Shown one piece after another: positions 6,422 to 32,000 of a stretch of 32,000 bases of DNA (its first letter is position 1; every line of letters starts with the position of its first letter). Under the pieces are notes generated by a model, which was given only the letters and a program-made list of their open reading frames with translations, was not told where the DNA came from and did not search any database. The translations under genes were made by a program, and so were the position numbers. The stretch comes from Eubacteriaceae bacterium. Lineage in GTDB: Bacteria; Bacillota; Clostridia; Eubacteriales; Eubacteriaceae. The stretch covers positions 21,650 through 53,649 of the forward strand of contig JASGLP010000008.1 in NCBI GenBank assembly GCA_030156895.1. The letters are read 5' to 3'.

Positions 6422-6471
6422 AAACGGATACACTGCTGGCAACTGCCTCGTTCCGGCAAATGCATCGAATG

Positions 6472-10427: not shown

Positions 10428-10462
10428 TTTTCATACCTGATATATCGCTGGTGACACAAAAA

Positions 10463-10506: not shown

Positions 10507-10528
10507 CACATGGTTTAAACTTGGACTT

Positions 10529-11188: not shown

Positions 11189-11904
11189 GTAATTGCCTCC
11201 TCTGCCGCGTCAAAAGGTAAGTGGGTTGAATCGTTTTTCTTGAGCCGTTCTTCGTATTTTCGTGCCCAGGTTGCCAGCGGGAAACAGAGCAAGAAATACA
11301 AAAGGCCGGCAAAAATGTAAGACGGACCGTAATCAAGGCTTGAGGATGCCCAGGAATCTGCCATATACATCAAATCAAAACCAGAAATCATTGCTAACAC
11401 TGACGTGTTTTTAATCAGATTTACCGCCTGATTGGTCAGCGGTGGTAAAATAATTTTAATCGTTTGTGGCAGAATAATATAGCGCATATACTGAACATAG
11501 GTAAAACCCTGAGATTTAGCCGCTTCAACCTGTCCCACCGGAATTGAATGAATACCAGCTTTAACCACCTCGGATACATAGGCGCCATGATAAATGCCTA
11601 CCCCCAAAACGCCAATGGTAAAGACGCTAAGACGCAGGCCGGCAATCGCCAGACCATTATACATAAAGAAAACCTGTATGACCAGAGGTGTGTTTTGGAA
11701 AAATTCGACATAAACCCTTGCGATTCCCCTCAGGATCTTGTTATTTGATGTAGAGATTACACCAAACACAACTCCCAGAACCAGAGCAAGGATAATGGCG
11801 AGGGCTGCGACCTCAATGGTACGCAGAAACCCTTCGCCAAACATTTGCCATTGTCCAAACATCTTCTCCCAGCGCCATAAGGCAAAAGGATTAGAGCTTT
11901 TCAT
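11182..11904 (-). CDS. Polar amino-acid ABC transporter permease
   Basis: 240 aa, EAAKSQGFTYVQ motif. Its start overlaps the stop of the binding-protein gene (TAATG). Confidence 0.9.
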   Translation of the reverse strand: MKSSNPFALWRWEKMFGQWQMFGEGFLRTIEVAALAIILALVLGVVFGVISTSNNKILRGIARVYVEFFQNTPLVIQVFFMYNGLAIAGLRLSVFTIGVLGVGIYHGAYVSEVVKAGIHSIPVGQVEAAKSQGFTYVQYMRYIILPQTIKIILPPLTNQAVNLIKNTSVLAMISGFDLMYMADSWASSSLDYGPSYIFAGLLYFLLCFPLATWARKYEERLKKNDSTHLPFDAAEEAITC

Positions 11905-12722
11905 TAATAATTAAGTCCCCATTTCGTAATCAGTTCTTCAATTGTGCCGTCTTCCAGCCATCCGTTAATGTATCCATCAACAGCTTCAGCAAGAGCAACG
12001 TTATTGAGGTTTGAAGCAACCCCATATTCCTGTGGAGAGAATCGGTCTGGTAGAATCATGGTTGAATCATCAACATATCCACCCAGGATTGATCCATCTA
12101 CACAGAAGGCATCGACTCGACCTGAGTCAAGGGCTGCCTTGATTTCCGGATAAGTCGCATATTCTGAGAAAGTAACGCTTACGCCCAGTTCATCCGCCGC
12201 AGCTTGAACAGCATCTTTAGACGTAGCACTCTGAGCAACTCCAATTACAGCACCGTCCATATCAGCAAGACCTGTGTAGCCAGCGTCTTTTTTAACCAGT
12301 AAGCCAACCGCATCTTCGTAATATGCTGTTGAAAAATTATAGGTTAGTTTTCGTTCTTCCGTAATGGTGAAAGTTGCAATTACTAAATCCAGTTCGCCAT
12401 TATCCAGTAATGGTCCACGTGTTTTTGCGGTTACTGGTGTTAATTCAACGGCGTTTTCATCACCCAGAATTTCTTTAGCCAGCATCTTTGCAATGTCCAC
12501 TTCAAATCCTTCGATTTCACCTGTTTCTGTGTTTCGAAGTCCAAAATTCGGAACATCTTCTTTTACACCAACTCGCAACACACCTGCATCTACAACAGCT
12601 TGTAGGCTGCCATCATCAGCAGTTGCTGTATCATCACTTGAATCAGTAGATGATGACGAACAACCAGCCAAAGTAAATACCAGGCTAAAAACTAACAGAG
12701 CAGAAAGTAATACCTTTTTCAT
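11904..12722 (-). CDS. Amino-acid ABC transporter substrate-binding lipoprotein
   Basis: Signal peptide plus lipobox MKKVLLSALLVFSLVFTLAGCSSS, then a type-3 SBP fold sequence. I prefer ATG 12722 (AGGAGG 9 nt upstream) over the ORF-track start at 12764. Confidence 0.9.
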   Translation of the reverse strand: MKKVLLSALLVFSLVFTLAGCSSSSTDSSDDTATADDGSLQAVVDAGVLRVGVKEDVPNFGLRNTETGEIEGFEVDIAKMLAKEILGDENAVELTPVTAKTRGPLLDNGELDLVIATFTITEERKLTYNFSTAYYEDAVGLLVKKDAGYTGLADMDGAVIGVAQSATSKDAVQAAADELGVSVTFSEYATYPEIKAALDSGRVDAFCVDGSILGGYVDDSTMILPDRFSPQEYGVASNLNNVALAEAVDGYINGWLEDGTIEELITKWGLNY

Positions 12723-12828
12723 AATCATTTTCCTCCTAAGAATTTTATAATCACCAAAAGTCAATCGCAGGGCAAATCAACACTTGAACAAACGACTGTT
12801 TTGCCACTACACAATTTTATTTTGGAAA

Positions 12829-13551
12829 TTAACGCAGGATTTTACTGAGGAAAAGCTTTGTTCTTTCCTCGGTCGGATTTTCAAAGAAATGTTCAGGTTT
12901 CCCTTCTTCAACAATCCTGCCATCATCCATGAAGATGACCCGGTCAGCTACCATTCGGGCAAAACCCATTTCGTGAGTCACCACCACCATGGTAATATTT
13001 TCTTTTGACAGTTTAATCATGACATCCAAAACCTCCTGAACCGTTTCCGGATCAAGTGCTGAGGTTGGTTCGTCAAAAAGAATAATCTTTTGTTCCGTCG
13101 CAAGCGCCCGCGCAATCGCAACACGCTGCTGTTGCCCTCCGGATAAAGTTGTTGGATAGACGTTTTCCTTTTCACTTAAGCCAACAATCGCCAGATATTT
13201 GCGCGCCTTTTTAATCGCTTCCTCTTTGGGAACCTTCTGGAGCTTAATCGGTGCAAGCGTTAGATTTTCCAACACTGTTTTATGCGGATATAGGTTAAAA
13301 CTCTGAAATACCATCGCCGAAGTTCTTCTGATCAGGTCAATTTTATTCTTCTGGGTCAGTTCTTCACCGTCCACAAAGACTTTACCGGAAGTCGGCTCTT
13401 CCAAAAAATTCATACAACGAACCGTTGTACTTTTACCTGAACCCGATGGCCCAATAATAACCAGCTTTTCACCTTCCTTAACCTCTAAATTAATATCCTT
13501 AAGGACATGATGCTCTCCAAAATACTTATTTACATTCTCAAGTTTAATCAA
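12829..13551 (-). CDS. Polar amino-acid ABC transporter ATP-binding protein (GlnQ-like)
   Basis: Walker [47 protein letters not shown] start. Confidence 0.95.
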
Positions 13552-13676
13552 TCACTCTTCCCCCAAATCATCTTCGAACGCCCAAAAAAGCTTCCATATA
13601 CATACGTATAAATTGGCGTATACAGAAGCCCCATCGCTTTATCAATTTCGTTAAATTTTCGTTAGACTATACATAA

Positions 13677-13705
13677 ATAATATTATGCCAGCGGCATTTT
13701 GTCAA
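13677..13705 (-). promoter_or_regulatory. Putative sigma-70 promoter of the amino-acid ABC operon
   Basis: Minus strand reads TTGACA-17 nt-TATTAT, ~125 nt upstream of the start at 13551. Confidence 0.55.
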
Positions 13706-13742
13706 TAGCTATTCCGACAAAGACCAAACTGCTGTCAAATAT

Positions 13743-15782
13743 CTAGCTGTTTTTTTCCATCTGTGCTTTTAAGTAATTCGTCATTTCGACATCGCCCAGA
13801 GGTTTGCTAAACAAATACCCCTGAATCCAATCGCACTTCCGCTTATTTAAAAATTCAAACTGTGGAACTTCTTCAACACCTTCTGCCACTACATGAATAT
13901 CAAGATTATGAACCATTTCGATAATACTTCCGACAATCCGTTTGTTTTTTTCCCCCTTCTCCAGAGATTTGATAAAAGAACGATCAATTTTCAATACATC
14001 AATTGGAAGCCGCATTAAATAACTAAGCGATGAATATCCTGTTCCAAAATCATCAAGGGAAATCATCAGACCTAATTTTTTGAGCTCCTGAATAATCATC
14101 GCAGCTCGTTCAATATTTCCCATAAAAACCGATTCGGTAATTTCCAGAGTCAGCTGTCGAGCATTTACTTTTTCTTCTTCAAGAACCTGTCGAACTCTTT
14201 CTAAGAAGTCCCCTCGTTTTATCTGAACAGGCGAAATATTAACGCCAATTCGTATATCTATACCCAGTTCGGTTTTTACAGACTTGATTTTTTTGCATGC
14301 CTGTCGCAACACCCATTCGCCCAAATCACCAATCAAACCAATTTCTTCAGCCATTGGAATAAATTCAGCTGGAGATATCAACCCTCGTTCCGGAACCTGC
14401 CAACGAAGCAAGGCTTCGAAACTGACATTTTTTTGATCCTCAACACTGACAATCGGCTGGTAGACGACAAAAAAGTCATTCTTTTCGAAAGCGCTAATCA
14501 TCTGGTTTTCCAAATCTATTTTGTAGAGCACTTCATTTTTCATTTCCTTCTGATAAAACTGAATGGAATTTTTTCCCAGCTCCTTAGCTTTATACATAGC
14601 AGTATCGGCAGCTTTTAAAAGATCGTTACAGGTCAAGGCGTCTCCCGGCCAGACAGCAATACCGAAACTGGCCGTCATAATTACAGATTTATCTCCAAGT
14701 TTAAAAGGATTTCCCAGCAGACCCAGGAGCTTTTGGGTATACCCCAGTACCTTTTCATCCGAAATCTGGCGACGAATCAAAATGGCCAGTTCATCCCCTC
14801 CTAGTCGCCCCAAAAGATCGCGTTCATCCATTGCAGCTTTCAGTCTGGTTGCTACCTTGATCAGCAAGTCATCACCCGCGCCATGACCCAATGAATCATT
14901 AATTTTTTTGAAATTGTCAAGATCAATAAAAACCAGCGAAAAGTGATTACCATTTTCCTGACTCAAATCAATCAACAATTCGATTTGCTCAAGTATCATT
15001 TTACGGTTGGGTACCCCTGTTAGTGTGTCGGTATAAGCCAAAAACTCGAGTCGTTCCTGATTCGCTTCAATTTCCGTATTGTATTGAAGCAACCGTTCAT
15101 TCTGCACCTTCAGCTGTTGTTGATGCGCGATGACATCTTCATACATCAGATTCAGTGTATCCTTCTGATCAAGTGTTTTCGCATAAATCATAGCCTTTTT
15201 CTGGATAATTTGCCGATAAATTTGATTGCTGACAATGCTGGCTACGATAATACACAAAAAAGCAACGCAAAAACTCAGATAAGAAATAGAGTCGACATGA
15301 ATGACCAATTCTGGATAAAAAGTCAGGCTAATGACGAAAAAAAACAGACTGGCAAAAATCATATAGTAAAACAGTGTTCTCTGAATCATCGTATTCGAAA
15401 AAATAACCATGATTAAAATAATCATCCAAAATAAAAATGTAATCTTTTGAAAATAAACTAGATATACCACGACGAGACTTGCAAACAAAGCTGCACTAAT
15501 CAGATTCATCATTAGCTGTCGCGGCAATTTTTGATGTAAAAGGATAATAATAAAAACCCCTGTGAAAAAAAGTGTGCCTGTGACAGTCATTGCTAAACTC
15601 ATCTTTTCAGCCCAATAGATACCTACGATCACACTCGTTAAAGCGGCTATCATAAGCATGGGTCCAAAAATAACCATCATCAGTTTCGTTTCATTTATTT
15701 TAATTTTTTCAATTGTCTCGGCCTCAGCAATACCATTAAGAATCTTCTTTAATTGTGCCTGAATTATTTTCACAGACATCAC
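13743..15782 (-). CDS. Membrane sensor GGDEF-EAL protein (diguanylate cyclase/c-di-GMP phosphodiesterase)
   Basis: ~190-aa multi-TM N-terminus and a coiled-coil linker. GGDEF domain YTDTLTGVPNR ... LLGRLGGDELAIL. The EAL domain has a full motif set (FEALLRW, EITES, DDFGTGYSSL, KIDRSF, EGVE, QGYLFSKP). Confidence 0.9.
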   Translation of the reverse strand: MMSVKIIQAQLKKILNGIAEAETIEKIKINETKLMMVIFGPMLMIAALTSVIVGIYWAEKMSLAMTVTGTLFFTGVFIIILLHQKLPRQLMMNLISAALFASLVVVYLVYFQKITFLFWMIILIMVIFSNTMIQRTLFYYMIFASLFFFVISLTFYPELVIHVDSISYLSFCVAFLCIIVASIVSNQIYRQIIQKKAMIYAKTLDQKDTLNLMYEDVIAHQQQLKVQNERLLQYNTEIEANQERLEFLAYTDTLTGVPNRKMILEQIELLIDLSQENGNHFSLVFIDLDNFKKINDSLGHGAGDDLLIKVATRLKAAMDERDLLGRLGGDELAILIRRQISDEKVLGYTQKLLGLLGNPFKLGDKSVIMTASFGIAVWPGDALTCNDLLKAADTAMYKAKELGKNSIQFYQKEMKNEVLYKIDLENQMISAFEKNDFFVVYQPIVSVEDQKNVSFEALLRWQVPERGLISPAEFIPMAEEIGLIGDLGEWVLRQACKKIKSVKTELGIDIRIGVNISPVQIKRGDFLERVRQVLEEEKVNARQLTLEITESVFMGNIERAAMIIQELKKLGLMISLDDFGTGYSSLSYLMRLPIDVLKIDRSFIKSLEKGEKNKRIVGSIIEMVHNLDIHVVAEGVEEVPQFEFLNKRKCDWIQGYLFSKPLGDVEMTNYLKAQMEKNS

Positions 15783-15839: not shown

Positions 15840-15857
15840 TTACTCAACTTTCCCAGC
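15840..15857. repeat. IS terminal inverted repeat (transposase-distal end)
   Basis: TTACTCAACTTTCCCAGC, the exact reverse complement of 17341-17358. Confidence 0.85.
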
Positions 15858-17271
15858 CAAATTGAACAAACAAAGCCTGAACAAAAGAGGCCTGAGCATT
15901 GATCCAATGCATAAGTTGATTTTTTAATAGAGCCGATTTCTTAGAACCAGCTGTTTTTATGTGCTCAACAAATAAGCCCATCAGGCTTTGAAGCGCCGCT
16001 GTCAATGTGATATCTTGAATATCGTCACAAAGACGGAAAAATAATTCACACAAAGTCTTATCATCCTGCTCGTTTCGGCGCATCCATTCAAGTAATATAT
16101 AGCGGATGAAAACAATGGTGGTGTGGCTGATCATCATGTCATAACTTCGTCCCTGAAATTCCGTTCCCAGTTTCATCAGAGCCTTGGAGGATTTGAAGAA
16201 GACTTCAATACTCCAGCGGTTGCCGTAAATGCGGATAATTTCTTCATCCGATAATGACAGATCAGTACTGAGAATGGTCAGCCAGTCACTCTTTTTATTA
16301 CGGTTTCTGACAAAAACGAGTTTAACCGGAATACCATTTTTAGTTTGAACACTGATTGATCCGAACTGATTTCCACCTGAATGTTTAGGCAAAAGCTTTC
16401 GCAGTTGAGGTAGTGTATAAAAATCGTTCTGATAACAGTAGTGCTGTTTTAACTGCTTGACCATCCCAATCACATCAAGGCCTTCATTCAGGATACTTTG
16501 GATCATTGGTTCATGAGTAAACCATGTATCTATCAGGACATAGTTGGCCTGAATACCCTGTTTGAGTGCCCGACTGATCATCTCAACAGCAACATCGTTT
16601 TTCTTTCTGACGGCTTCTTTTCGGCGTTTATAGCCGCTAGTGCGTTTATCAATCGATTCTGTTACCCCCTTGAACCGATTGTTCGGATTTGCCGAGGACA
16701 TCATCGCAAAATCAACCGGAACAAAACTGAAGCCGTCAGACCAGCCCAGTGCCAGCATGGTAAAGCCTTTAATATACCGGTGTTCGGCGTGATCATAGAG
16801 TTTAGCCAGCAGTTCAACCTGTTTGCTCCGATTTCGGCTGATTACTGAATCATCAAGGATCAGAACTTTTACCCGCTCTGCCTGTGTCAATCGGGTAAAG
16901 GCGGCAATGACTCTTGCCGATAGGGATGACAGAAAGCGACGCCAGTTGTAAGTTGCCGTATTCAAAAAACGATAGTAAGTATTTTTCGAAACGGCTTCTT
17001 CACGGTGTTTGGAATCCAGATAACGATACAGATTTTTACCTTGAAAGACCAGTAGCAAAAGAAATTCAAAGACTTCAATGACTCGGACTCCCTGAGCTTT
17101 TCGAATTCCTGACTCTCGCAGAAGAGCCGGTAACCGTAATTCTTTAAATGCTTTCAAAATTTCAATTTCTACCTTTTCAGATGGGCTGTTTTGGTTTATC
17201 ATAATGGTATGCACCTTTCCTGTCTGATTTTTGTTGTTTTGCAATTTCATTATATCAGATGTCAGGTGCAT
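15844..17271 (-). CDS. IS4-family DDE transposase
   Basis: 475-aa maximal ORF. It has the IS4 Y-x2-R-x3-E-x6-K signature (YGNRWSIEVFFKSSK) and candidate DDE aspartates (LILDDS, VLIDTWF). The true start may be ATG 17202 (MINQNSP...). Confidence 0.9.
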   Translation of the reverse strand: MHLTSDIMKLQNNKNQTGKVHTIMINQNSPSEKVEIEILKAFKELRLPALLRESGIRKAQGVRVIEVFEFLLLLVFQGKNLYRYLDSKHREEAVSKNTYYRFLNTATYNWRRFLSSLSARVIAAFTRLTQAERVKVLILDDSVISRNRSKQVELLAKLYDHAEHRYIKGFTMLALGWSDGFSFVPVDFAMMSSANPNNRFKGVTESIDKRTSGYKRRKEAVRKKNDVAVEMISRALKQGIQANYVLIDTWFTHEPMIQSILNEGLDVIGMVKQLKQHYCYQNDFYTLPQLRKLLPKHSGGNQFGSISVQTKNGIPVKLVFVRNRNKKSDWLTILSTDLSLSDEEIIRIYGNRWSIEVFFKSSKALMKLGTEFQGRSYDMMISHTTIVFIRYILLEWMRRNEQDDKTLCELFFRLCDDIQDITLTAALQSLMGLFVEHIKTAGSKKSALLKNQLMHWINAQASFVQALFVQFGWES

Positions 17272-19048: not shown

Positions 19049-19678
19049 TCAGCTTGCATTATATTTATTGCGGTATAAATGATAGAATTCTTCAACCTGA
19101 CGATCCAATATATCAAGAGCTTCTTTTTCCTCGGCAGATCGGCCATTATATTTACTAAGCAAAAAAAATATTGGAGCATAAAAATTCATCGCCATCGCCT
19201 TAGGGTCATGCGCAGAAAACGATCCCTGTCGAATCATTTCATTAAATAATTTAGCCTGATAAGCAATACTTTCTTCCATAAAAATATTTCGATAAATCTC
19301 ATAAATTTCCGGGTCAGAGTACTGCTCCATATTTGCTAAGCGCCAGAAACGAGAAATTAAGTCATCTTTTAAATAAAAGAGAAAAATCATTCGACTAAAA
19401 GCCTGAAGTTCCTCTAGTGACATATTTGCGTATTTTGAAGCGGCCTTTAAAAAATCATTTTCATCAGGCAGACCGATTTCAACTGACATTTCTGCCATCT
19501 TCTCGCGCATTCTTTCGACAATGGTATCAAAAATCTCTTTCTTGCTGGAAAAGTGCTTATATAAGGAACTATCCTTGATTCCCACTGCATCGGCAATTGC
19601 TTTTACCGTTGTTGCTTTAAAACCGTTAATCGAAAAAAGCGTTAACGCTTCATCGACAATTTTTTCTTTTGTTGTCAT
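19049..19678 (-). CDS. TetR/AcrR family transcriptional regulator
   Basis: N-terminal HTH KEKIVDEALTLFSINGFKATTVKAIADAVGIKDSSLYKHFSSKKEIF. Start overlaps the radical SAM stop (TAATG). Confidence 0.9.
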   Translation of the reverse strand: MTTKEKIVDEALTLFSINGFKATTVKAIADAVGIKDSSLYKHFSSKKEIFDTIVERMREKMAEMSVEIGLPDENDFLKAASKYANMSLEELQAFSRMIFLFYLKDDLISRFWRLANMEQYSDPEIYEIYRNIFMEESIAYQAKLFNEMIRQGSFSAHDPKAMAMNFYAPIFFLLSKYNGRSAEEKEALDILDRQVEEFYHLYRNKYNAS

Positions 19679-20775
19679 TAAACCGTCCTTTCAAGAAGCG
19701 CTTTCACTTCTGCTTCCTGCTCGAAAAGAACGCAGCCTCCAGTATGCTCTACTAATAAATTACCAGCGTTTTGCAATTTTAAAAACAGTGGTGATCGCAA
19801 TGCTTCTTTTAAAGAAGTATTCATCAGCGTAGTATCGGAGTATGGTGAAAAAGGGCAGGGTTCCGCCTCTCCATAGGGATTAATATGGAAAAATCCCCGG
19901 CCTGCAGCCAGACAACCACCTGATTCTTTTTCATCCCCAGGAAAAGCAATGAAAATCATCTCTTTTTCATGCTCTCGTATTTTATTGAGTTTTCTCTCAA
20001 AGATTGTCCTACTGTCATCATCAAATGCCAGGTTTTTACTACTTCCATCCACTGGCACATACTCCACATAGATCACTGCTTTACAACCTCGTTCTTTAAT
20101 TTCGTTAATAAATGCATCTGAAAACACTTCTTCAAGGTTTTTAGATGTAACCGTAACCGAGACGCCAAATATATTACCCCGATTTTTCAGCGATTTCATT
20201 GCTTCTTCAATCTTCCGATAAACACCGCTCCCCCTTCTCTGATCGGTTGTAACCATATTTCCTTCCATACTGATAAGGGGAACCAAATTAGGATTGACTG
20301 CTAGAAAATCAAGATATTGCTGATCTATCATTGTTCCGTTGGTAAAAACCGGAAACAGGATTCTTTTTTCTTTGGCCGCCACCGTCAGAATATCCTTGCG
20401 TACAAAAGGTTCTCCCCCAGCCAAAAGGACAAAGCTGATACCCAGATCAGCCGCCTGATTAAAAATGTTCTGCCACTGATCCACCGATAATTTCTTTTTC
20501 TCGTTTGCTTTATCATGACATTGCTGATTAGCTCTGGCATAACATCCGCTACAGTGAAGATTACAGTCTTCAGTAATACTGGCAATTAAAAATGGGGGGA
20601 TGTGTTCACCGCATAATTCCGCTTTCTGACGCAACTTCTCGGCATTCTGACTAATTTTAGCAAATTTCATCATAAAAAGGCTGGCCTGAGGATTTTTCAA
20701 TGTTGTTTTTAAGATCCCTTGAACAATTTCTCTGACTCCCTCGCTTAAATAGGCTTCCAAATTAAAGGTTGACAT
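19678..20775 (-). CDS. Radical SAM protein with twitch/partial-SPASM-like C-terminal Cys motif
   Basis: CNLHCSGCYA (Cx3Cx2C), GGEPF, and C-terminal GGCLAAGRGFFHINPYGEAEPC (C-x13-G-x4-C). I prefer ATG 20775 (GGAGG 6 nt upstream) over the ORF-track start at 20796. Confidence 0.85.
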   Translation of the reverse strand: MSTFNLEAYLSEGVREIVQGILKTTLKNPQASLFMMKFAKISQNAEKLRQKAELCGEHIPPFLIASITEDCNLHCSGCYARANQQCHDKANEKKKLSVDQWQNIFNQAADLGISFVLLAGGEPFVRKDILTVAAKEKRILFPVFTNGTMIDQQYLDFLAVNPNLVPLISMEGNMVTTDQRRGSGVYRKIEEAMKSLKNRGNIFGVSVTVTSKNLEEVFSDAFINEIKERGCKAVIYVEYVPVDGSSKNLAFDDDSRTIFERKLNKIREHEKEMIFIAFPGDEKESGGCLAAGRGFFHINPYGEAEPCPFSPYSDTTLMNTSLKEALRSPLFLKLQNAGNLLVEHTGGCVLFEQEAEVKALLERTV

Positions 20776-20816
20776 TTTTTCCTCCATATAAAGCAATACA
20801 TGCTTGACTTATAATT

Positions 20817-24545: not shown

Positions 24546-24962
24546 ATGAACAAACCTAAAGTCGCCTTCATCTGCGTCCATAATTCCTGTCGCAGCCAGA
24601 TGGCTGAAGCCCTTGGCAAAAAATTTGCTGCCGACGTCTTTGAAAGCTATTCAGCCGGAACCGAAACCAAACCGCAGATTAATCAGGATGCGGTTCGTCT
24701 GATCAAAGAACGCTACAATATTGATATGGAAGCCAGTCAATATTCCAAACTCCTTGATGAACTGCCCCCAATCGATATTGTAATTAAGATGGGCTGCAAT
24801 GTGGTCTGTCCCTATTTACCGGCAAAACATACAGAAGATTGGGGGCTGGATGATCCAAGCGGAAAATCTGATCAGGAATTTGGCCTGATTATCGATGCAA
24901 TTGAAGCAAAGGTCAAAAAACTGGCTGATGATATAAAAAACAATATAATCAGCTTTTTATAA
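24546..24962 (+). CDS. arsC: Thioredoxin-coupled arsenate reductase (LMW-PTP family)
   Basis: KVAFICVHNSCRSQMAEA P-loop (Cys10/Cys15/Arg16) and the downstream Cys pair GCNVVCPYL, matching the three-Cys relay of Gram-positive ArsC. RBS AAAGGAG. Confidence 0.9.
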   Translation: MNKPKVAFICVHNSCRSQMAEALGKKFAADVFESYSAGTETKPQINQDAVRLIKERYNIDMEASQYSKLLDELPPIDIVIKMGCNVVCPYLPAKHTEDWGLDDPSGKSDQEFGLIIDAIEAKVKKLADDIKNNIISFL

Positions 24963-25099: not shown

Positions 25100-25639
25100 T
25101 TAAGTATCAAATTTTTCGGCGTCCTCATAAATCTTTTTGATTTCATCCTCTTTCATCACCGCCGAAAGAATATAGGCAATAATAATAATTCCGGGAATAT
25201 CAATAAATAGACGGGTAATCGCAAATTTTGTCCCCATAGATGCCATTTCAAATAAAAACATGGGGATTTTTGTGGTCGACCATGCTCCGATAAAGATCAT
25301 GATATTGCTGAATTTTACGCCCTTTTTCATAAAGACAGCGGCAATGGGAAACGCACCATATAAAGGTCCGGCGGCAGCTGAACCAATAAAAAAAGCCAGT
25401 AGAATCCCTTTCAGACCTGAACCGGGGCCCATATATTTCATCATCGTTTCTCTCGGTACCCAGACGTCCAAAAGCCCCAGCAGGACAAAAACCGGCGGGA
25501 TAATCATAATCATTTCTTTGATCGAATATCCGCTGATTCCGATCGCTTTTAAGCCCAGTTCCCGGTTAAAAAGGGTGATCAAAATCATAATTACAATGGC
25601 AATTAAAAATCCACGATAGCGTTTTAAAAACTTTTTCAT
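25100..25639 (-). CDS. Permease, DUF318/ArsP-family (COG0701-like), C-terminal-half subunit of a two-piece permease
   Basis: 179 aa, ~5 TM. 4-nt overlap with the upstream half-gene. The family call rests on my recollection of split SMU_746c/747c-type permeases and needs an HMM check. Confidence 0.6.
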   Translation of the reverse strand: MKKFLKRYRGFLIAIVIMILITLFNRELGLKAIGISGYSIKEMIMIIPPVFVLLGLLDVWVPRETMMKYMGPGSGLKGILLAFFIGSAAAGPLYGAFPIAAVFMKKGVKFSNIMIFIGAWSTTKIPMFLFEMASMGTKFAITRLFIDIPGIIIIAYILSAVMKEDEIKKIYEDAEKFDT

Positions 25640-26115
25640 AAACTCATCACCACCCCAATTACCAGTGCCACAACAAAGGAAAAGAGAAAGGCCAGAAAAT
25701 TGCGGGCAATCGCCAGCTTTTTCCCGAAATACTTCATCTCAACCGGCAGGGTTATGATCCCTACCATCATCAGAGCCGAGATAAAGGCCCCGATCTGCAT
25801 ATAACCGGCGCCCCCCTCTAATAATAAGGCTGTCATAGGAAAGGCTACAAAACCGGGAATCAGAGTAATAGAACCCGTAGCGGCTGCCAGGAACACTCCC
25901 AGCCAGCCCGATTTTTCACCGATGATATTAGAGATCACCTCTTCATTAATAACCGTCAATAATAAGCCAACCAGCAGAATCACCACCAGAAATTCCGGCA
26001 AGATATTTTCAAAGGCTTTCCAGGCCTTTTTTAAGGCCATTTTCGTCTTTTTTCGATCCTTGTAGAAAGAAACCAATAAAAGCAGGCCGGCAACTACATA
26101 TAAGGCTATATTCAT
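25636..26115 (-). CDS. Permease, DUF318/ArsP-family (COG0701-like), N-terminal-half subunit
   Basis: 159 aa, ~4 TM. N-terminus LLLVSFYKDRKKTKMALKKAWKAF and GSITLIPGFVAFPM resemble COG0701 permeases. RBS AAAGGAG. Confidence 0.6.
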   Translation of the reverse strand: MNIALYVVAGLLLLVSFYKDRKKTKMALKKAWKAFENILPEFLVVILLVGLLLTVINEEVISNIIGEKSGWLGVFLAAATGSITLIPGFVAFPMTALLLEGGAGYMQIGAFISALMMVGIITLPVEMKYFGKKLAIARNFLAFLFSFVVALVIGVVMSL

Positions 26116-26144
26116 AGCACCTCACTCCTTTATGCAAATTGGCC

Positions 26145-27338
26145 TTACTGGCATTCTCCGTTTTTCTCGAGCATCTCTTTCTGACGGCTTGCTTCAAACT
26201 GGGAAATAAAAAAGGCTGCTACCATACTGACCAGAAAAAGAATCACGGCGGAGTTTAAATAGATGGTCGACAAGTTTCCCGAATCAATCACCACAGCATT
26301 AACACTGGTACCTATCGCACCACCGACAAACATGTTAAATGAAGCCAATGACATGGCCGTTCCCCGGCGCTTTGATAATTTCTCCTGAACAGTGGTAATA
26401 AGTGTTGACTGGAGGAATATAAATGCCACCCCATAGCCAAATAAAGCCAAAGACAAGAACCAAACGTTGCTTGAAAAAGCCAGGCCCAAAAGGGATATTC
26501 CTCCGATGACACCAGCAGATACCAGAAATCTGCCTTTTAATTTCTTTCTTAAAACCGGAGCGATCCGCCCTCCGATGACTGTCCCAACCCCAAATAGGGA
26601 AAGAATGGCTCCCACAATAAACAGGTTATAACCAGTTACTGTTTGAATTAATTTACCAGTGTAAGTAAAGCCTCCAAAAACGCTGAAACCGACAAAGAAA
26701 ATCGTCAACACCAGTTTCATAAAAGAAAAATCTGAAAGGGGTTCCTTATAGGCTTCTATCAGATGAAAGTGATCAACCACGGGCTGATCTCTTTCAAGAA
26801 TTTTAAACATGATCAGGGCAACTACCAGCTCGGCAATCCCATAAGCCAGATAAACCAACCGCCAGGAACCTAAATAAGCCAAAGTCCCCCCAATAATGGT
26901 CGCCATTGCTCCGCCCATAAACATCAGCCCCATGACCTTGCCAATGGCTTTCTGCCGATGCTGAGGTTCAAAACTCTGGCCAACAAAAGCCAGTGTAACC
27001 GGGAAAATACCGGCACCGAAGGCGCCATTCATGGCACGAAAGAAAATCAATGAGGGCAGATTAAAGGAAAAAGCACCCAAGATACTAAAAATTGCCGTTC
27101 CCATGGCTGCTATATTAATAATCTTAACCTTGCCGAAGCGATCAGAAAGCGGGCCAAAAATCAATGTAAATGCTCCAAAAGCCAGCATATAAGCAGTAAC
27201 CGACATGGCCGCCACACTGACTGTGATATTTAAATCTGCAGCGATATTAATAATCAGCGGTGCCGCTGCATAGTTATCGCCATTAGCTAAAAATGCCATC
27301 AAACCAAGGATAGCAATCATTCTGTTTTTATTTTCCAT
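26145..27338 (-). CDS. MFS transporter (DHA-type)
   Basis: ~12 TM; GPLSDRFGK loop motif. I prefer ATG 27338 (MENKNRMIAILG), 1 nt after the ferredoxin stop. The ORF-track start at 27416 would overlap the ferredoxin gene by 77 nt. Confidence 0.85.
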   Translation of the reverse strand: MENKNRMIAILGLMAFLANGDNYAAAPLIINIAADLNITVSVAAMSVTAYMLAFGAFTLIFGPLSDRFGKVKIINIAAMGTAIFSILGAFSFNLPSLIFFRAMNGAFGAGIFPVTLAFVGQSFEPQHRQKAIGKVMGLMFMGGAMATIIGGTLAYLGSWRLVYLAYGIAELVVALIMFKILERDQPVVDHFHLIEAYKEPLSDFSFMKLVLTIFFVGFSVFGGFTYTGKLIQTVTGYNLFIVGAILSLFGVGTVIGGRIAPVLRKKLKGRFLVSAGVIGGISLLGLAFSSNVWFLSLALFGYGVAFIFLQSTLITTVQEKLSKRRGTAMSLASFNMFVGGAIGTSVNAVVIDSGNLSTIYLNSAVILFLVSMVAAFFISQFEASRQKEMLEKNGECQ

Positions 27339-27339
27339 T

Positions 27340-27546
27340 TTAGATATTTGTATCTCCATAATACTGAATCGCATCCGCTGGACACAGGTTACCACAACCA
27401 TGACAACCGTCAACACAACCGTCTGTATAAATCACAATCGGTTTTTGACTTGATTTGTCATAAACCCCATGAGTACATTTTTCTACGCATGATCCACATT
27501 CAACACAACTTTCTTCATTAATCATTGGATACCAATTTTTAGCCAT
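27340..27546 (-). CDS. Small atypical 2x[4Fe-4S] ferredoxin-like protein
   Basis: 68 aa: NWYPMINEESCVECGSCVEKCTHGVY (CxxCxxCxxxC) and CVDGCHGCGNLCP (Cx3Cx2Cx3CP). RBS AAGAGG. Paralog of 29367..29672. Confidence 0.85.
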   Translation of the reverse strand: MAKNWYPMINEESCVECGSCVEKCTHGVYDKSSQKPIVIYTDGCVDGCHGCGNLCPADAIQYYGDTNI

Positions 27547-27747
27547 TTTTTACCTCTTTCACAATTAAATATTTAAATTTTTTTGAACCCATAAAAAATT
27601 ATTTCTGTTCATTAATAATTAACAACCATCAAATCTTAATCAGAAATATGATTAGTCCTATCGGGAAATGTTCTGGATCTAAACTATAAACCTTAGTCAA
27701 CTTTAGTCCGAAACGACTGTAAAGATTCTAAATTTTATTGATCACTT

Positions 27748-28143
27748 TTAAAGTGAATCGTATATTTTCAGTATTTCAGCGCTCACCTGATCTACCATTT
27801 TTTGATGATGCTCGGTCAAATTTCTGGTAGATAGCGGGGCATCCAGTGCCAACTCTTTCCCAATTATTGCTTCAATGTCGATGCTGCCGGATACTTCCGC
27901 ACTAAATTTTTCAATCGCCCGTTTAGCACAGCATTTTGAACAGCCATCCACTGAAATAGTCGGATAATTTTTAGCAAACTCCCGTTCTCCGCCATCACCA
28001 GCAATAAACAAGGGCAAACACAGGGTAGTGGTCACGCCTGGGCGATCTTTTTCCATTATTTTCCGGACTGCCAGTCGGGAGATGGTACCGCCCAGACATT
28101 CTTCTCCACTGCAGGCAACAACGCCGATTTTCTTTTCTGCCAT
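27748..28143 (-). CDS. DGC (Cys4, putative metal-binding) domain protein
   Basis: 131 aa with the four family cysteines in ACSG, LCLP, VDGC and CCA. Start overlaps the upstream stop (TAATG). Confidence 0.75.
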   Translation of the reverse strand: MAEKKIGVVACSGEECLGGTISRLAVRKIMEKDRPGVTTTLCLPLFIAGDGGEREFAKNYPTISVDGCSKCCAKRAIEKFSAEVSGSIDIEAIIGKELALDAPLSTRNLTEHHQKMVDQVSAEILKIYDSL

Positions 28144-28541
28144 TAGACTTCCCCCCTCAGTTCATTGACCATTTCAACCATTTTATCGGCCAGCTCTTCA
28201 GCATAATTCCAGCCGTCTTCAGTTAAAGCAGTCGCCGTTCCATGATCTTCACCTCGATGGGCCCGCATAAAATCTGCCACCTTATAGCTTTTGGCAACCT
28301 GACCGCCAGCCGCTTCCACACTTTTTAAGGCACACTGTTTGGGACAGCCATCCATGGTGATGCAGGCTTGACCTTTAATCCGATTGATCACGTCATCATC
28401 GCCAGTAACCAGCTGGGCCAGACACAGAGTTTCCGTTTGATCAGGACATTTATCCTGGGTCACCATCAGCACAGATTCCCGCGCCAGCAAGCCTAAAACT
28501 TTTCCAATCCCAGAGCAGGGTAAAACTTTTACTTTAGACAT
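28143..28541 (-). CDS. DGC (Cys4, putative metal-binding) domain protein
   Basis: 132 aa with PCSG, LCLA, MDGC and QCA. 8-nt overlap with the upstream gene. Confidence 0.75.
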   Translation of the reverse strand: MSKVKVLPCSGIGKVLGLLARESVLMVTQDKCPDQTETLCLAQLVTGDDDVINRIKGQACITMDGCPKQCALKSVEAAGGQVAKSYKVADFMRAHRGEDHGTATALTEDGWNYAEELADKMVEMVNELRGEV

Positions 28542-29370
28542 CTTGGGCCACCTTCTTTTTCAGATATTCAAAATAGGATGATCCATCGTGAAGAATTTCC
28601 AGATCTTCCGTAACTTCATCCGTTAAAGCGATCTCAACCAGCCAGCCTCTTTCGTAAGGCGATTCATTGATCCATTCCGGTGAGTCCTGAAGTGCTTCAT
28701 TAACCGCTGTCACCCTTCCTGATACCGGGGCAATGATTTCAAAAACGGCCTTACCCGATTCGATGCTGCCGCAGTCATCAAACTGCTCAATTTCATCATC
28801 AATTTCAGGGGGATCATAATAAAGAATATCCGAAAGATTCTGCTGCACATAATCGCTGACGCCAATTCGAGCCGAATTTCCCGAGACATAAACCCAACAG
28901 TCATTCTCATTAAAAAAGAAGCCTTGCTTTGGTACTTTAAAAACAAACTTTCCTTCCATAAAGGAATCATAGTCTATGGTGGTCATTTCAAAAGTTGACG
29001 CTTCTTTTTTATCTTCGGTTTGAGTCAATTTTTCAACCAGGGCTTTCTGCACCGCTTTTGTCGTTTCATTAACCGCTAAATCTTTGCCCAGTTTTAAATC
29101 CATGGACTTGGCTACGTCACTGACATTGTACTTGTCTTTAATCTTCAGATCAAGACTCTGTGCCAGTTTGCTGGCACATCGTGTATTACAGCCGTCAATG
29201 ACGACCAGGTCGCCCTGAGCAAGTATCTTTTCGTAAGGGCTTTTATTCTGATTTAAGAGTACCGGACAAATCAGCTCAAAATCATCCTGCTGACTTAGTT
29301 CAACTGCAGCCTGGCCTGAGACCAGGCCGGCACATTTGTCCAGTCCGTTACAGGGTAATAAACATTTCAT
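28534..29370 (-). CDS. Fusion protein: N-terminal DGC domain + C-terminal glycine-cleavage H-protein-like (lipoyl/swinging-arm) domain
   Basis: N-terminus has PCNG, ICPV, IDGC and RCA. The C-terminus CWVYVSGNSARIGVSDYVQQNLSDILYYDPPEIDDEIEQFDDCGSIESGKAVFEIIAPVSGRVTAVNEALQDSPEWINESPYERGWLVEI is collinear with GcvH and has a Lys at the ESVK lipoylation position. ATGA overlap with the upstream ferredoxin gene. Confidence 0.8.
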   Translation of the reverse strand: MKCLLPCNGLDKCAGLVSGQAAVELSQQDDFELICPVLLNQNKSPYEKILAQGDLVVIDGCNTRCASKLAQSLDLKIKDKYNVSDVAKSMDLKLGKDLAVNETTKAVQKALVEKLTQTEDKKEASTFEMTTIDYDSFMEGKFVFKVPKQGFFFNENDCWVYVSGNSARIGVSDYVQQNLSDILYYDPPEIDDEIEQFDDCGSIESGKAVFEIIAPVSGRVTAVNEALQDSPEWINESPYERGWLVEIALTDEVTEDLEILHDGSSYFEYLKKKVAQDV

Positions 29371-29672
29371 TCGCCCGCCTCTTTCTTGGCTTTCTCTGCT
29401 TTGCGGGTAGCCTTGATTTTCTTGGTTGTTTCGGTTTTATCCGGAAAAGAAAGCGCATCCAAACCACAAGTCTTAGAACAAGCCCGGCAAAAGACTACAC
29501 AATTGTTAGGGTTTTTCACAATCAGTTTTGGTGTCTGATCTTCTCTCACCTCAAAGACCTGATGGGGACAAAATTCCACGCAATCCATACAATCATTGCA
29601 TTTTGAATAATCAATGGTCGGGCACCAGTCAATTTTCTCCCGGTCAACACCCATAAAAGTTGATTCACTCAT
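29367..29672 (-). CDS. Atypical 2x[4Fe-4S] ferredoxin-like protein with Lys-rich C-terminal tail
   Basis: 101 aa: WCPTIDYSKCNDCMDCVEFCPHQVF and CVVFCRACSKTCG, then KKIKATRKAEKAKKEAGE. RBS GAGGTG. Paralog of 27340..27546. Confidence 0.85.
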   Translation of the reverse strand: MSESTFMGVDREKIDWCPTIDYSKCNDCMDCVEFCPHQVFEVREDQTPKLIVKNPNNCVVFCRACSKTCGLDALSFPDKTETTKKIKATRKAEKAKKEAGE

Positions 29673-29674
29673 AG

Positions 29675-30046
29675 CTACACCTCATATCCCATCTCTTCAA
29701 GCTTTTCTTCCACTTTCTCGAAGGCTTCCTCATTGGTCATATCGCGAATATCCAGCATCACTGCAGCTTCCATTATATCAAGTCCCGCTTCTTTAAAAGC
29801 ATCCTTGAACATTTTTTTCTGCATATTAGGCGCGCAGGCACCAATAATCACTTTGCGGTGACTCTTTAAAAAATCGGCCAAAAAGCGGTCGCCATCTTCC
29901 TCGCACAGTTGGGGATGGATAAAAGCATATTCAACCGGCAGCTCCACTCTCACCTGATTAATAAAGTCCCATATATCCATGGCCTGAAAGCCTGGACATT
30001 TCCCAGTACAGACACACATTAAAAAACCTGGTAATTCCTGACTCAT
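29675..30046 (-). CDS. Small 5-Cys protein, possibly MvhD/FlpD-like Fe-S protein (function unknown)
   Basis: Cys pattern FLMCVCTGKCP ... HPQLCEEDG ... VIIGACAP. Its layout resembles the [2Fe-2S] MvhD fold only by eye. I prefer ATG 30046 (GAGGTG 6 nt upstream) over the GTG at 30055. Confidence 0.6.
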   Translation of the reverse strand: MSQELPGFLMCVCTGKCPGFQAMDIWDFINQVRVELPVEYAFIHPQLCEEDGDRFLADFLKSHRKVIIGACAPNMQKKMFKDAFKEAGLDIMEAAVMLDIRDMTNEEAFEKVEEKLEEMGYEV

Positions 30047-30086
30047 ATCATTCACCTCTTTATTATTTAATTATTTGCTTATGGAT

Positions 30087-30115
30087 ATTGTACACCCATC
30101 AATATTCTGAGTCAA
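30087..30115 (-). promoter_or_regulatory. Putative internal sigma-70 promoter ahead of the Cys-rich gene block
   Basis: Minus strand reads TTGACT-17 nt-TACAAT, in the 115-nt gap between the radical SAM stop (30162) and the ATG at 30046. Confidence 0.5.
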
Positions 30116-30161
30116 TGTTAAATTTTTGTTTTTCCTAACTATTAAGAATTCAAAGCTGCCT

Positions 30162-31178
30162 TTAAGGACAGCGAATAAAGTTTCTGACCCAGAGACAGTC
30201 CCCGCATGAAGGTGTATTAAAATAGCAATCATACTTTGTATCTTCCACCAGTGAGCATCCCCCTCGCAGATCACAATCGACACATGAAGGATACTGGTTG
30301 TTGTAAATCGTCTGCCAGAAATCCTGATAAGCCTTGCCTTCAATAATCTCCTTTAAAGGCTTTTCTTTGACATTTCCGAAAGAATGCTTAATAACCCGTT
30401 TCTTTTCGCCAAAAACAAACTCATTATAGGTGTTTGCCAATCGATAACAGGAAATCACCTCACCGCCGGCATCAATATAGATATAACCCTTATCAATGAA
30501 ATCGCAGCGACGCTCGGTTTTTAATTCCATATCCGGCATATTGACCTTAATATCCCGATTGGAAAACATCCGGTCACGAAACTTCTTCCCTTCCACATTT
30601 TCATAACGGGTATAAAAGATCTCATCTTCATCATCTTTGGACAGCGGCATCAGGTGTGATAAATTAAGCCGATGAAAACCATAATGCCGCATCATGTCAA
30701 GAATTTCAAACAGAGCTTCATGATTGCTTTTAGTCAGAACATAGGCAATGCCTGTTTTAGGCGTTGAAGACCGGGTTCTCCGATGATAGTCGGCAAAATA
30801 TTGAAAGGTTTTAAGCAGCTGATCTTTTAGTCCCTGCGTTTCTTCGTGATACTGATCGGCGGAAAAAAAGACCGCACCAAAATTTTCACAAAGAATCCTG
30901 GCCGTTTCCTCCGGCATAATGCCGTTGCTGGTGATCAAAAGTCGATACTCTTTAAAAAGGTCTACCGCTTCTTTAAAATACGGATAGATGGTTGGCTCAC
31001 CAATGCCACCAAAAAAAATCTCTTTAACCGTCTTGATTTCTGAAATCTGTTCTTTGAGCGACTTAAGCAGCTCAAAATCCATATCTCCTTCAACCGTTTC
31101 CCAACTGTGTCTGAAACACATCTCGCAATCCAGATTGCAACGGTTGGTCAGTTCGATATACACGCGTTTTAATTCCAT
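30162..31178 (-). CDS. Radical SAM enzyme with C-terminal SPASM domain plus an extra CxxCx8CP tail
   Basis: TNRCNLDCEMCF (Cx3Cx2C), GGIGEP. SPASM pattern C-x13-G-x4-C (CDFIDKGYIYIDAGGEVISC), then CVDCDLRGGC...C. Terminal CGDCLWVRNFIRCP. Confidence 0.85.
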   Translation of the reverse strand: MELKRVYIELTNRCNLDCEMCFRHSWETVEGDMDFELLKSLKEQISEIKTVKEIFFGGIGEPTIYPYFKEAVDLFKEYRLLITSNGIMPEETARILCENFGAVFFSADQYHEETQGLKDQLLKTFQYFADYHRRTRSSTPKTGIAYVLTKSNHEALFEILDMMRHYGFHRLNLSHLMPLSKDDEDEIFYTRYENVEGKKFRDRMFSNRDIKVNMPDMELKTERRCDFIDKGYIYIDAGGEVISCYRLANTYNEFVFGEKKRVIKHSFGNVKEKPLKEIIEGKAYQDFWQTIYNNQYPSCVDCDLRGGCSLVEDTKYDCYFNTPSCGDCLWVRNFIRCP

Positions 31179-31474: not shown

Positions 31475-31503
31475 TTGACGATTTATTTGAATCAGGCTAT
31501 GAT
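31475..31503 (+). promoter_or_regulatory. Putative sigma-70 promoter of the cysteine-desulfurase-like gene
   Basis: TTGACG-17 nt-TATGAT, ~85 nt upstream of ATG 31591. Confidence 0.5.
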
Positions 31504-31590
31504 TATATGTAAGCATATTATTATTTAGTTATACTTAAGACTAACAAACAAGCTTCTGATCGCTTTAATTCATCTAGCAAGGAGAATGAT

Positions 31591-32000
31591 ATGAGTATTT
31601 ACCTGGATAATGCCGCAACGTCCTTTCCCAAGCCTTTGTCCGTTCCTCAAGCCGTCTATGATTACATGGTCAACAACGGCGGAACCTCAGGCCGGGGCGC
31701 CTATGAAAAAGCCATTATTGCCGATGGTCTTGTCTACCGGACTCGAAAACTGCTGGCTCAGCTCTTTAACCATCCTGATCCCAAAACCATCGTCTTTACC
31801 TCATCTGTTACCGAGTCGCTTAATATGGCCCTACAGGGACTGTTACAGGCCGGTGATCATGTTGTCACCAGTTCCCTTGAACATAACGCCGTCTGGCGAT
31901 GTTTAAAAACCCTTGAACGGGATCGGCAGATTTCTATTACGACAGTTCCGGCCAATCAGAATGGCGAAACGAATTTGTCCGATGTTGAAGCCGCCCTTAC
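31591..32000 (+). CDS. Class-V aminotransferase-fold PLP enzyme, cysteine desulfurase/selenocysteine lyase-like (C-terminus off window)
   Basis: Missing from the ORF track (open at the edge). My translation reads MSIYLDNAATSFPKPLSVPQAVYDYMVNNGGTSGRGAYEKAIIADGLVYRTRKLLAQLFNHPDPKTIVFTSSVTESLNMALQGLLQAGDHVVTSSLEHNAV... RBS AAGGAG 6 nt upstream. Confidence 0.85.
   Translation, partial: MSIYLDNAATSFPKPLSVPQAVYDYMVNNGGTSGRGAYEKAIIADGLVYRTRKLLAQLFNHPDPKTIVFTSSVTESLNMALQGLLQAGDHVVTSSLEHNAVWRCLKTLERDRQISITTVPANQNGETNLSDVEAAL

Follow-up and report, generated by a model that had tools for sequence, protein, structure and literature searches.

Does the run of small, Cys-rich carrier genes on the minus strand of a Eubacteriaceae contig encode one redox and export system, or is a smaller part of it the conserved unit, and what might that unit do? 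The question is raised by positions 25100-31178 of a 32,000-nt stretch of contig JASGLP010000008.1 (the window, meaning throughout the whole stretch that was analysed), from a member of the Eubacteriaceae near Acetobacterium. Using the list of open reading frames (ORFs) together with Pfam and NCBIfam searches of the window genes, we find 10 consecutive minus-strand ORFs in this cluster. A preliminary description of the DNA had counted eleven genes and proposed that they form a single thiol-relay-and-export system. Its ORF positions, strand, gaps and overlaps all agree with the ORF list, but the products it named total ten, and the proposal of one conserved system does not survive comparison with other genomes, where no more than five coupled genes occur throughout. 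These five, translationally coupled at 27748-30046, form the conserved unit, and the other genes of the cluster are variable accessories. The cluster as a whole is a mosaic arsenic/metalloid-resistance island around one conserved operon, not one system. As to function, we lean slightly towards the view that this five-gene cassette is a metalloid-responsive lipoyl/Fe-S redox module. The core genes, in order of transcription, are:

29675-30046, minus strand: core gene 1, an HdrA N-terminal-domain-like Fe-S protein of 123 aa (no Pfam family; placed by PDB and Foldseek searches)
29367-29672, minus strand: core gene 2, the ferredoxin-like protein Fd1, with two 4-Cys motifs (Fer4 families of Pfam)
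28534-29370, minus strand: core gene 3, a DGC-GcvH fusion (PF08859, 8e-18; PF01597, 4e-31)
28143-28541, minus strand: core gene 4, DGC2 (PF08859, 5e-14)
27748-28143, minus strand: core gene 5, DGC3 (PF08859, 4e-18)

Core gene 1 starts with the ATG at 30046, with an alternative GTG at 30055. A 2-nt gap (29673-29674) separates it from Fd1; the remaining junctions are overlaps of 4 nt (Fd1/fusion, 29367-29370), 8 nt (fusion/DGC2, 28534-28541) and 1 nt (DGC2/DGC3, at 28143).

We searched a single genome for each species, using aligned fusion proteins as the query, confirmed 200 loci by tblastn, and fetched 80 species-level loci of those 200 with 10-kb flanks. Every complete locus among the 80 keeps the order HdrA-N-like protein, Fd1, DGC-GcvH, DGC2, DGC3, on the same strand and with the same short overlaps; a few loci, truncated at a contig end, hold only a partial gene set. 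With order and strand repeated in every complete locus, chance falls far short of explaining the five-gene arrangement. The cassette is carried by at least 200 species of anaerobes, among them Clostridia, Negativicutes, Desulfotomaculia, Thermoanaerobacteria, Bacteroidales and one Acidobacteriota metagenome-assembled genome, and its hosts include the acetogens A. woodii, T. kivui, C. ljungdahlii and E. limosum, and also Desulfosporosinus. Thus, one part of the preliminary description, a conserved and tightly coupled set of Cys-rich, Fe-S and lipoyl-carrier proteins, is borne out. A literature search on PF08859/DGC, on lipoate or GcvH with ars genes, on heterodisulfide reductase and arsenite, on radical SAM/SPASM enzymes and ArsR, and on the A. 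woodii locus tags Awo_c22570-22620 found no study of the cassette, subscription-only papers being outside its reach.

Two genomes, those of Eubacterium callanderi FD and Lacrimispora sp. 38-1, contain two complete copies of the cassette each. In Eubacteriaceae bacterium ES2, the nearest complete genome, the cassette is interrupted between the DGC-GcvH gene and DGC2 (locus 10001-14969). The insert holds a second small ferredoxin gene (Fd2, see below), arsA (TIGR04291, 809 against a cutoff of 650), the gene for an IscA/HesB-like, Cys-rich protein of 93 aa, and arsD (NF033727, 135 against 90). A copy of the operator-like box described below stands 93 nt upstream of DGC2 in this genome. We also considered a plasmid-borne mobile resistance island and rejected it, as tblastn of the fusion against PLSDB matched ordinary GcvH genes only.

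What surrounds the cassette? Neighbours were counted within 5 kb of the core in two ways: as fractions of the 58 loci with full flanks, and as a table of clustered neighbours (tallies out of 81), for which cluster representatives were annotated. An ArsR gene is present in 49/58 loci (84%; 61/81), ArsA, ArsD, ACR3, ArsC-like or ArsM in 27/58, and ArsR or any ars-type gene in 53/58. In the table, ArsA is found 15 times, ACR3 13 (representative score 445, cutoff 283), ArsM 7 (309, cutoff 263) and ArsD 7, together with ArsC-like proteins (12), full-length ArsP_1 permeases (10), ArsE-type thioredoxins (17), CcdA/DsbD-type membrane proteins (21), extra DGC proteins (12), TIGR01977 cysteine desulfurases (18), PF04060 Fe-S proteins (18) and CDF transporters (10). 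Other recurrent neighbours are rhodanese, DUF2703, CMD/AhpD-like (4 loci), TauE and XdhC-like (4 loci) proteins. The representative ACR3 and ArsM neighbours, and ArsA and ArsD of ES2, exceed their NCBIfam cutoffs. A typical Bacillota layout is ArsR-Lpd-[core]-LplA, and a typical Bacteroidota layout ArsR-ArsE-x-DsbD-[core]. The ArsRs adjoining the core have a CxC motif in helix 3. Past position 32000, the contig of the window continues a divergent operon that encodes a cysteine desulfurase-family protein, a PF04060 Fe-S protein, a 90-aa protein and, last, an ArsR (NF033788, 85 against 55). The ars-type genes of the window itself are the two ArsP_1-family half-permeases and an ArsC-like phosphatase-family gene that scores under cutoff.

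An ArsR adjacency of 84% is far above a rough chance estimate, taken from typical copy numbers and uncomputed, of a few percent for ArsR and <1% for dihydrolipoyl dehydrogenase (Lpd) in 10-12 kb. The arsenic link is well supported and is the strongest signal in the data. The preliminary description had hinted at metalloid handling; the hint stands, and its grading as speculation was too weak.

Other flanking genes differ by lineage. Just upstream of the A. woodii cassette lie a glutamate-cysteine ligase gene and an ATP-grasp gene (locus 4649-6964), a pair that may possibly serve low-molecular-weight thiol synthesis, and downstream lies an XdhC/CoxI-family gene (locus 11890-12741). Four protein families, described here from their sequences, recur in the Bacteroidota flanks: one of 136 aa, secreted and Cys-containing, whose gene often stands in 2-3 tandem copies; a lipoprotein-like one of 120 aa; one of 322 aa that begins with a signal-like segment; and one of 249 aa whose C-terminus is rich in Cys. 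The same flanks have an FtsX-like/ABC pair.

Could the inducer or substrate be something other than arsenic? ArsR/SmtB-type regulators might instead respond here to soft-metal or chalcogen stress (Zn/Cd, persulfide or sulfite, selenium, tellurium). The NCBI name for the DGC proteins, 'putative zinc-binding protein', points that way, as do CDF transporters in 8/58 loci, the rhodanese, TauE and XdhC-like neighbours, and the closeness of the cysteine desulfurase-family protein to selenocysteine lyase SclA (380 bits, cutoff 525). We nevertheless regard this alternative as improbable: the neighbourhood is dominated by the arsenic-specific ArsA, ArsD, ACR3, ArsM and ArsP, arsA and arsD sit inside the ES2 cassette, and the ArsR of the window's contig scores far under the BigR model (49 against 155).

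The most telling core protein is the fusion, whose conserved residues are C7, C35, C61, C65 and K207. An alignment of 14 fusion proteins shows K207 without exception, and in a set of 83 it is at least 90% conserved. The GcvH part matches the E. coli H-protein 3a7a_B (E=2e-22), with ESgK aligned on ESvK. In the E. coli H-protein, the lysine of this ESVK motif carries lipoate. K207 is thus the predicted lipoyl-acceptor lysine of the fusion, a prediction that is well supported by the alignments and by the enzymes for such a carrier that relatives encode. Lpd (TIGR01350, 527 against 409) is encoded in 34/58 loci (46/81), mostly directly upstream on the same strand, and lipoate-protein ligase (LplA; TIGR00545, 413 against 280) in 14/58 (17/81), mostly directly downstream; in most Bacillota loci the cassette has an Lpd and an LplA gene of its own. 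The preliminary description had noted that a lipoate ligase is missing, which holds for the window but not for relatives.

These features invite the view that the fusion is simply a metabolic GcvH of the glycine cleavage system or of a reductive glycine/Wood-Ljungdahl route, and that its ars neighbours are coincidental. Source databases do annotate it as GcvH, and it nearly reaches an NCBIfam GcvH equivalog (116 against a cutoff of 117; 106.7 against 115.85 for another, hence under both). Many hosts are acetogens, and one T. kivui strain has CooC, LplA and FTHFS genes a few kb from the fusion. However, neither GcvT nor GcvP turned up in the recurrent families of neighbours counted within 5 kb at the 81 loci, the cassette is also found in Bacteroidales, Desulfosporosinus and Negativicutes, and some genomes have two copies. 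Set beside the ArsR adjacency, rough as its chance estimate is, these observations make a purely metabolic role most improbable.

Core gene 1 is the most conserved of the five (84-100% identity over 120 best matches, mostly Eubacteriaceae), and source annotations call it 'hypothetical' or 'HdrA-like polyferredoxin'. It has no Pfam family at E<=0.01, FlpD (PF02662) included. In the PDB it matches HdrA 7bkb_A, residues 9-104 (E=6e-5), with 4 Cys aligned. Its AF2 model has a predicted local distance difference test (pLDDT) score of 82.6. Foldseek with this model returns HdrA chain A in each of the first seven places, and gives for the HdrA match E=2.7e-4, probability 1.00 and a root-mean-square deviation of 3.0 A over 98 columns; MvhD (5odc_D) follows at rank 25, with E=0.19. 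Five Cys (C14, C16, C20, C51 and C74, in 126-aa numbering) are invariant in 80 sequences. By sequence and modelled fold, core gene 1 is a homologue of the HdrA N-terminal cluster-binding domain and is predicted to bind a cluster, so that its earlier label, 'MvhD-like', has to be revised. Fd1, with eight Cys invariant in 83 sequences, is a predicted 2x[4Fe-4S] ferredoxin. Its best NCBIfam matches are HgcB and HgcAB-like proteins, the former at 36.8 bits against a cutoff of 99. Because the scores are far under the cutoffs, Fd1 is not HgcB; that identity (NF040864) was rejected for both ferredoxins of the cluster, at 36.8 and 39.7 bits.

The three DGC domains of the window score 52.6-65.7 bits against a PF08859 cutoff of 27, and the cysteines of the DGC motif are conserved. 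DGC2 has C9, C40, C60, C66 and C70 (four invariant, one in 98%), and DGC3 has C11 (99%) and the invariant C42, C68 and C72. Family profiles indicate that the domains are homologous to one another (hhalign probability 96-99%; DGC2 against the others, 97-99%). As modelled in the fusion (pLDDT 91), the domain is a small four-stranded alpha/beta domain, and in the model's secondary structure three strands have the four Cys at, or shortly past, their C-terminal ends. Foldseek of this model against the PDB gave generic Rossmann-like matches only (E>0.1), and hence no informative solved relative. A distant relationship to the Fe-S domain of MvhD or HdrA-N was also considered, and is not supported (hhalign probability <=1%). 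The sole paper we found that names PF08859 places a DGC protein, labelled as of unknown function, within an ArsR-ArsP-ArsE operon of Pseudodesulfovibrio mercurii.

How is the cassette expressed in the window? The following candidate signals were identified:

30087-30115, minus strand: promoter-like site of the core operon, TTGACT-17-TACAAT (consensus scan, 10/12 matches)
30065-30083, minus strand: operator-like box CATAAGCAAATAATTAAAT, between the -10 element and the ribosome-binding site (cross-genome alignment)
30155-30172, minus strand: terminator-like hairpin at the end of the radical SAM gene (consensus scan only)
31491-31532, unstranded: three operator-like boxes in the divergent intergenic region (degenerate-pattern scan)
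31475-31503, plus strand: promoter-like site of the cysteine desulfurase operon, beneath the box cluster (consensus scan)

Upstream of the core in 13 aligned Eubacteriaceae loci, the -35 TTGAC is invariant, the -10 element is conserved and, just before the ribosome-binding site, there is a box conserved as ATAAG(G/C)AAATAATTAtAT, for which a second written form of the consensus is ATAAG(G/C)AAATAATTATAT. In Eubacterium loci the box is a 9-2-9 palindrome. It emerged from this cross-genome alignment; an inverted-repeat search of the intergenic regions was uninformative on its own. The degenerate box matches the window 6 times against 0.73 expected, and 0/100 shuffles reach 6. Three of the six matches are clustered over the promoter-like site of the cysteine desulfurase/ArsR operon, and one of these, at 31515-31532, fits the degenerate pattern exactly. 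In Acetobacterium loci, related boxes precede Lpd, ArsR and ArsP genes. With the box at both promoters, the core operon and the divergent one appear to make up a single regulon that has a transcription start of its own. Promoter-like sites as such are not enriched across the region relative to shuffles (18 against 16), and weight is given only to the conserved one at 30087-30115.

The remaining genes of the cluster, and those that flank it, are as follows:

30162-31178, minus strand: radical SAM/SPASM enzyme, accessory (PF04055 and PF13186)
27340-27546, minus strand: Fd2, a small ferredoxin, accessory, 1 nt before the MFS gene (Fer4 families)
26145-27338, minus strand: MFS transporter of DHA type, accessory (PF07690, MFS_1, 7e-52)
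25636-26115 and 25100-25639, minus strand: ArsP_1-family permease in two pieces, accessory (PF03773)
24546-24962, plus strand: low-molecular-weight (LMW) phosphatase/ArsC-like gene, convergent (PF01451)
31591-32000, plus strand, running past the window end: cysteine desulfurase gene of the TIGR01977 family, start of the divergent operon (PF00266)

Gene calls place the MFS start at 27338, 1 nt from Fd2, and the two permease halves (PermA and PermB) overlap by 4 nt. The start codon of the cysteine desulfurase gene is at 31591 by ORF list and translation; a manual base count gave 31592. Pfam agrees with the families assigned earlier to the radical SAM/SPASM enzyme, the ferredoxins, the DGC-GcvH fusion, the two further DGC proteins, the MFS transporter and the two-piece ArsP permease.

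Does this wider set belong to the cassette? If so, all ten (or eleven) genes would make up one stoichiometric thiol/electron relay-and-export system, with the radical SAM enzyme as its sole catalyst. The cluster does lie on one strand with short gaps throughout; homologues of the MFS transporter and the split permease occur near the core in 12/58 and 13/58 loci, respectively, at times together (in some Lachnospiraceae-type loci, in a different gene order); and radical SAM homologues lie within 10 kb of the core in 11 loci. Within 5 kb, however, Fd2 is found in 7/58 loci and the radical SAM gene in just 5/58. In relatives the latter is usually directly preceded by its own ArsR (ArsR-Fd2-rSAM in one), is often downstream of Lpd-ArsA-x-ArsD, and has other genes between it and the core; the window copy has no preceding ArsR. 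The order, side and strand of the accessory genes vary among genomes, and in the window the promoter (30115-30087) and the hairpin (30172-30155) sit between the radical SAM gene and the core. We consider a single all-inclusive system very unlikely. Of the neighbourhood that the preliminary description had drawn, the fusion and Fd1 recur together in every complete locus of the 80 and the radical SAM enzyme does not follow them; the two exporters do accompany the core at times, as variable accessories.

For the radical SAM enzyme, we rejected assignment to TIGR04317, the tungsten-cofactor oxidoreductase maturase (332.5 bits against a cutoff of 380). That family is marked by an adjacent AOR-family enzyme. 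None is encoded in the window, and none was seen among the annotated neighbours of the radical SAM homologues, some neighbours having been left unannotated. The MFS transporter reaches no NCBIfam model at cutoff, its best matches being generic drug-efflux families. The permease halves score 36.6 and 49.8 bits against PF03773 (gathering threshold 32.3), each covering about half of the profile. Pairs of Fd2 with the MFS or the radical SAM gene were seen in Desulfosporosinus and Negativicutes loci. The flanking gene named 'arsC' earlier belongs to the LMW-phosphatase family and falls well under the NCBIfam arsenate-reductase cutoffs (86.7 against 215; 71.8 against 174); its P-loop, NSCRSQMAE, is one that we take to be typical of thioredoxin-coupled ArsC. 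Homologues are found near the core in 12 loci, and Acetobacterium loci have two such genes in tandem.

Elsewhere in the window, a DDE-family transposase gene (DDE_5/DDE_Tnp_1, 15844-17271) lies between a GGDEF+EAL gene and a ChW/LRR surface-protein gene. Three cyclic di-GMP genes occur within 14 kb: dCache_3+GGDEF (2474-4018), 7TM+GGDEF (6472-8016) and GGDEF+EAL (13743-15782). Another radical SAM gene, unrelated to the first (Radical_SAM+Fer4_12, 372 aa), is coupled translationally to a TetR-family regulator gene (19049-20796).

The divergent operon raises a further alternative. Its first protein scores 450 against a TIGR01977 cutoff of 377, the SclA score being the one given above. The Fe-S protein that follows has 179 aa and a PF04060 domain like the N-terminus of the carbon monoxide dehydrogenase/acetyl-CoA synthase (CODH/ACS) gamma subunit; the 90-aa protein has no family match. 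The pair of cysteine desulfurase and Fe-S protein recurs beside the core in Acetobacterium, Eubacterium and the C. ljungdahlii group. Together with an IscA-like protein, it might act in damage control, not detoxification, under metalloid stress, with the cassette supplying a sacrificial or replacement lipoyl protein and Fe-S carriers that protect or rebuild lipoyl and Fe-S enzymes. Lipoyl groups and Fe-S clusters are established targets of arsenite, and this idea would account for the TIGR01977 and PF04060 genes beside the core in 14-18 loci, the box shared between the two operons in the window, the IscA/HesB-like gene between arsA and arsD in ES2 and Acetobacterium, and the lipoate ligase within the operon. 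Yet the cysteine desulfurase is missing from most loci, including all recovered Bacteroidota loci, no lipoyl synthase or scaffold (IscU/SufB) is linked, and a decoy needs neither two dedicated electron-transfer proteins nor a dedicated Lpd. We judge damage control unlikely.

We return to the reading of the cassette as a metalloid-responsive lipoyl/Fe-S redox module, and to how such a module might work. A trivalent metalloid would free ArsR, and the lipoylated carrier would be made. Its dithiol arm would then be kept reduced by ferredoxin electrons relayed via both Fe-S proteins and via the DGC proteins or, alternatively, by NAD(P)H where Lpd is encoded. The reduced arm and the DGC Cys might serve as a thioredoxin-like reductant for ArsC-like proteins, ArsM, ArsE-type thioredoxins and CcdA/DsbD-type shuttles. 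Or they might bind As(III) or trivalent organoarsenicals directly and hand them to ArsD/ArsA-ACR3, ArsP-type or MFS exporters. Each of these specific chemistries, reductant supply and As(III) capture, is less likely than the module reading itself. The radical SAM/SPASM gene, Fd2-MFS, the split ArsP-like permease and the ArsC-like gene of the window would be separate, variable modules of the same island.

Dihydrolipoate is a classical high-affinity ligand of As(III) and of the methylated arsenical MAs(III). The lipoate of pyruvate dehydrogenase has been described as an arsenic target (PMC12608789). It is possible, and we put it forward only tentatively, that the cassette represents a new arsenic-defence mechanism of anaerobes, with the dihydrolipoyl arm as its working part, kept reduced by the ferredoxin route or by Lpd. 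The arm's task would be either to reduce pentavalent or organic arsenicals or to carry As(III) between DGC Cys sites and exporters. The SPASM radical SAM enzyme, ArsR-linked in relatives, could be a second new arsenic enzyme; oxygen-independent action on organoarsenicals would be a speculative role for it.

Several points weigh against a metalloid-responsive lipoyl module. Neither Lpd nor a lipoate ligase is encoded in or next to the cluster, in the window or the extended contig. In five of the full-flank loci, the 5 kb around the core hold no ars-type gene, and the CDF transporters, rhodanese and TauE noted above are found beside the cassette as well. ArsR/SmtB regulators also sense Zn, Cd and sulfur species. 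Binding of ArsR to the conserved box is putative, and the four DGC Cys could hold Zn, an Fe-S cluster or As(III). The neighbour counts are not independent events, because the 80 loci are phylogenetically related. Finally, no expression or phenotype record for the cassette genes was found in the literature.

Arsenite poisons cells largely via dihydrolipoyl groups, and a dedicated lipoyl protein under arsenic-type control would, if true, invert this picture; it would bring along a ligase and a reductase of its own. The DGC domain, and an HdrA-like module that stands alone, would thereby gain their first function, and it would become clear where arsenic enzymes get their missing reductant in anaerobes without glutathione. 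The hosts span gut Bacteroidales, gas-fermentation acetogens and sulfate reducers, amounting to hundreds of anaerobe species, and the cassette genes would become new markers of arsenic cycling in paddy soils, aquifers and the gut.

How does the cassette compare with known systems? Canonical ars operons (ArsR-ArsD-ArsA-ACR3/ArsB-ArsC, with ArsM, ArsP and ArsE) share with it an adjoining ArsR-family regulator; ArsA, ArsD, ACR3, ArsM, ArsP and ArsE-type thioredoxins are in the same islands, and an ArsP_1 permease and an ArsC-like gene in the window. By contrast, to our knowledge and in the literature we found, the five core proteins include no named Ars protein, and no arsenic-related role has been assigned to any lipoyl carrier, HdrA-like Fe-S protein or DGC protein. 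With the HdrA and MvhD modules of methanogen Hdr complexes (PDB 7bkb and 5odc), the common ground is core gene 1, which has the sequence, the fold and the four cluster-Cys positions of HdrA-N. It differs from HdrA in standing alone (123 aa), in its fifth invariant Cys and in lacking the flavin and ferredoxin domains, while its similarity to MvhD is weak (E=0.19).

Three systems offered themselves as identities for the cassette, and each was rejected, its defining partners being absent: sHdr/LbpA, the glycine cleavage system and the GcvH-L/SirTM operon. In Staphylococcus and Streptococcus, Rack et al. reportedly described in 2015 a stress operon of GcvH-L, LplA2, SirTM and a macrodomain protein. 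It resembles the cassette in placing a non-metabolic GcvH-like carrier and its own lipoate ligase in a stress-response operon, but no sirtuin or macrodomain genes were seen near the cassette, and the partners (DGC, Fe-S proteins, Lpd) and the regulator differ. The sHdr-LbpA sulfur oxidation system combines a GcvH-like lipoate-binding protein, a dedicated lipoate ligase and Hdr-related Fe-S proteins (PMC6067878). The cassette likewise pairs a GcvH-like lipoyl carrier with a dedicated ligase and an Hdr-related Fe-S protein; by contrast, it has just the HdrA N-domain of about 100 residues, and its neighbours are ars, not sulfur-oxidation, genes. HdrB/HdrC CCG domains, a full flavin HdrA and DsrE/TusA gave no Pfam match among the window genes and are absent from the 27 commonest neighbour clusters, in line with the preliminary description, which had already set sHdr/LbpA aside.

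By analogy, the cassette would work most like the lipoyl-protein redox relays, of which the mycobacterial Lpd-DlaT(SucB)-AhpD-AhpC system, a lipoamide-dependent peroxidase reportedly described by Bryk et al. in 2002, is an example. There is no AhpC in the cassette, its carrier is a GcvH fused to DGC and not an E2, it has extra Fe-S proteins, and its context is ArsR, not oxidative stress. In both cases, though, Lpd would reduce a protein-bound lipoyl arm that acts as a thioredoxin-like reductant for a stress-defence enzyme, and CMD/AhpD proteins are themselves neighbours of the cassette in 4 loci.

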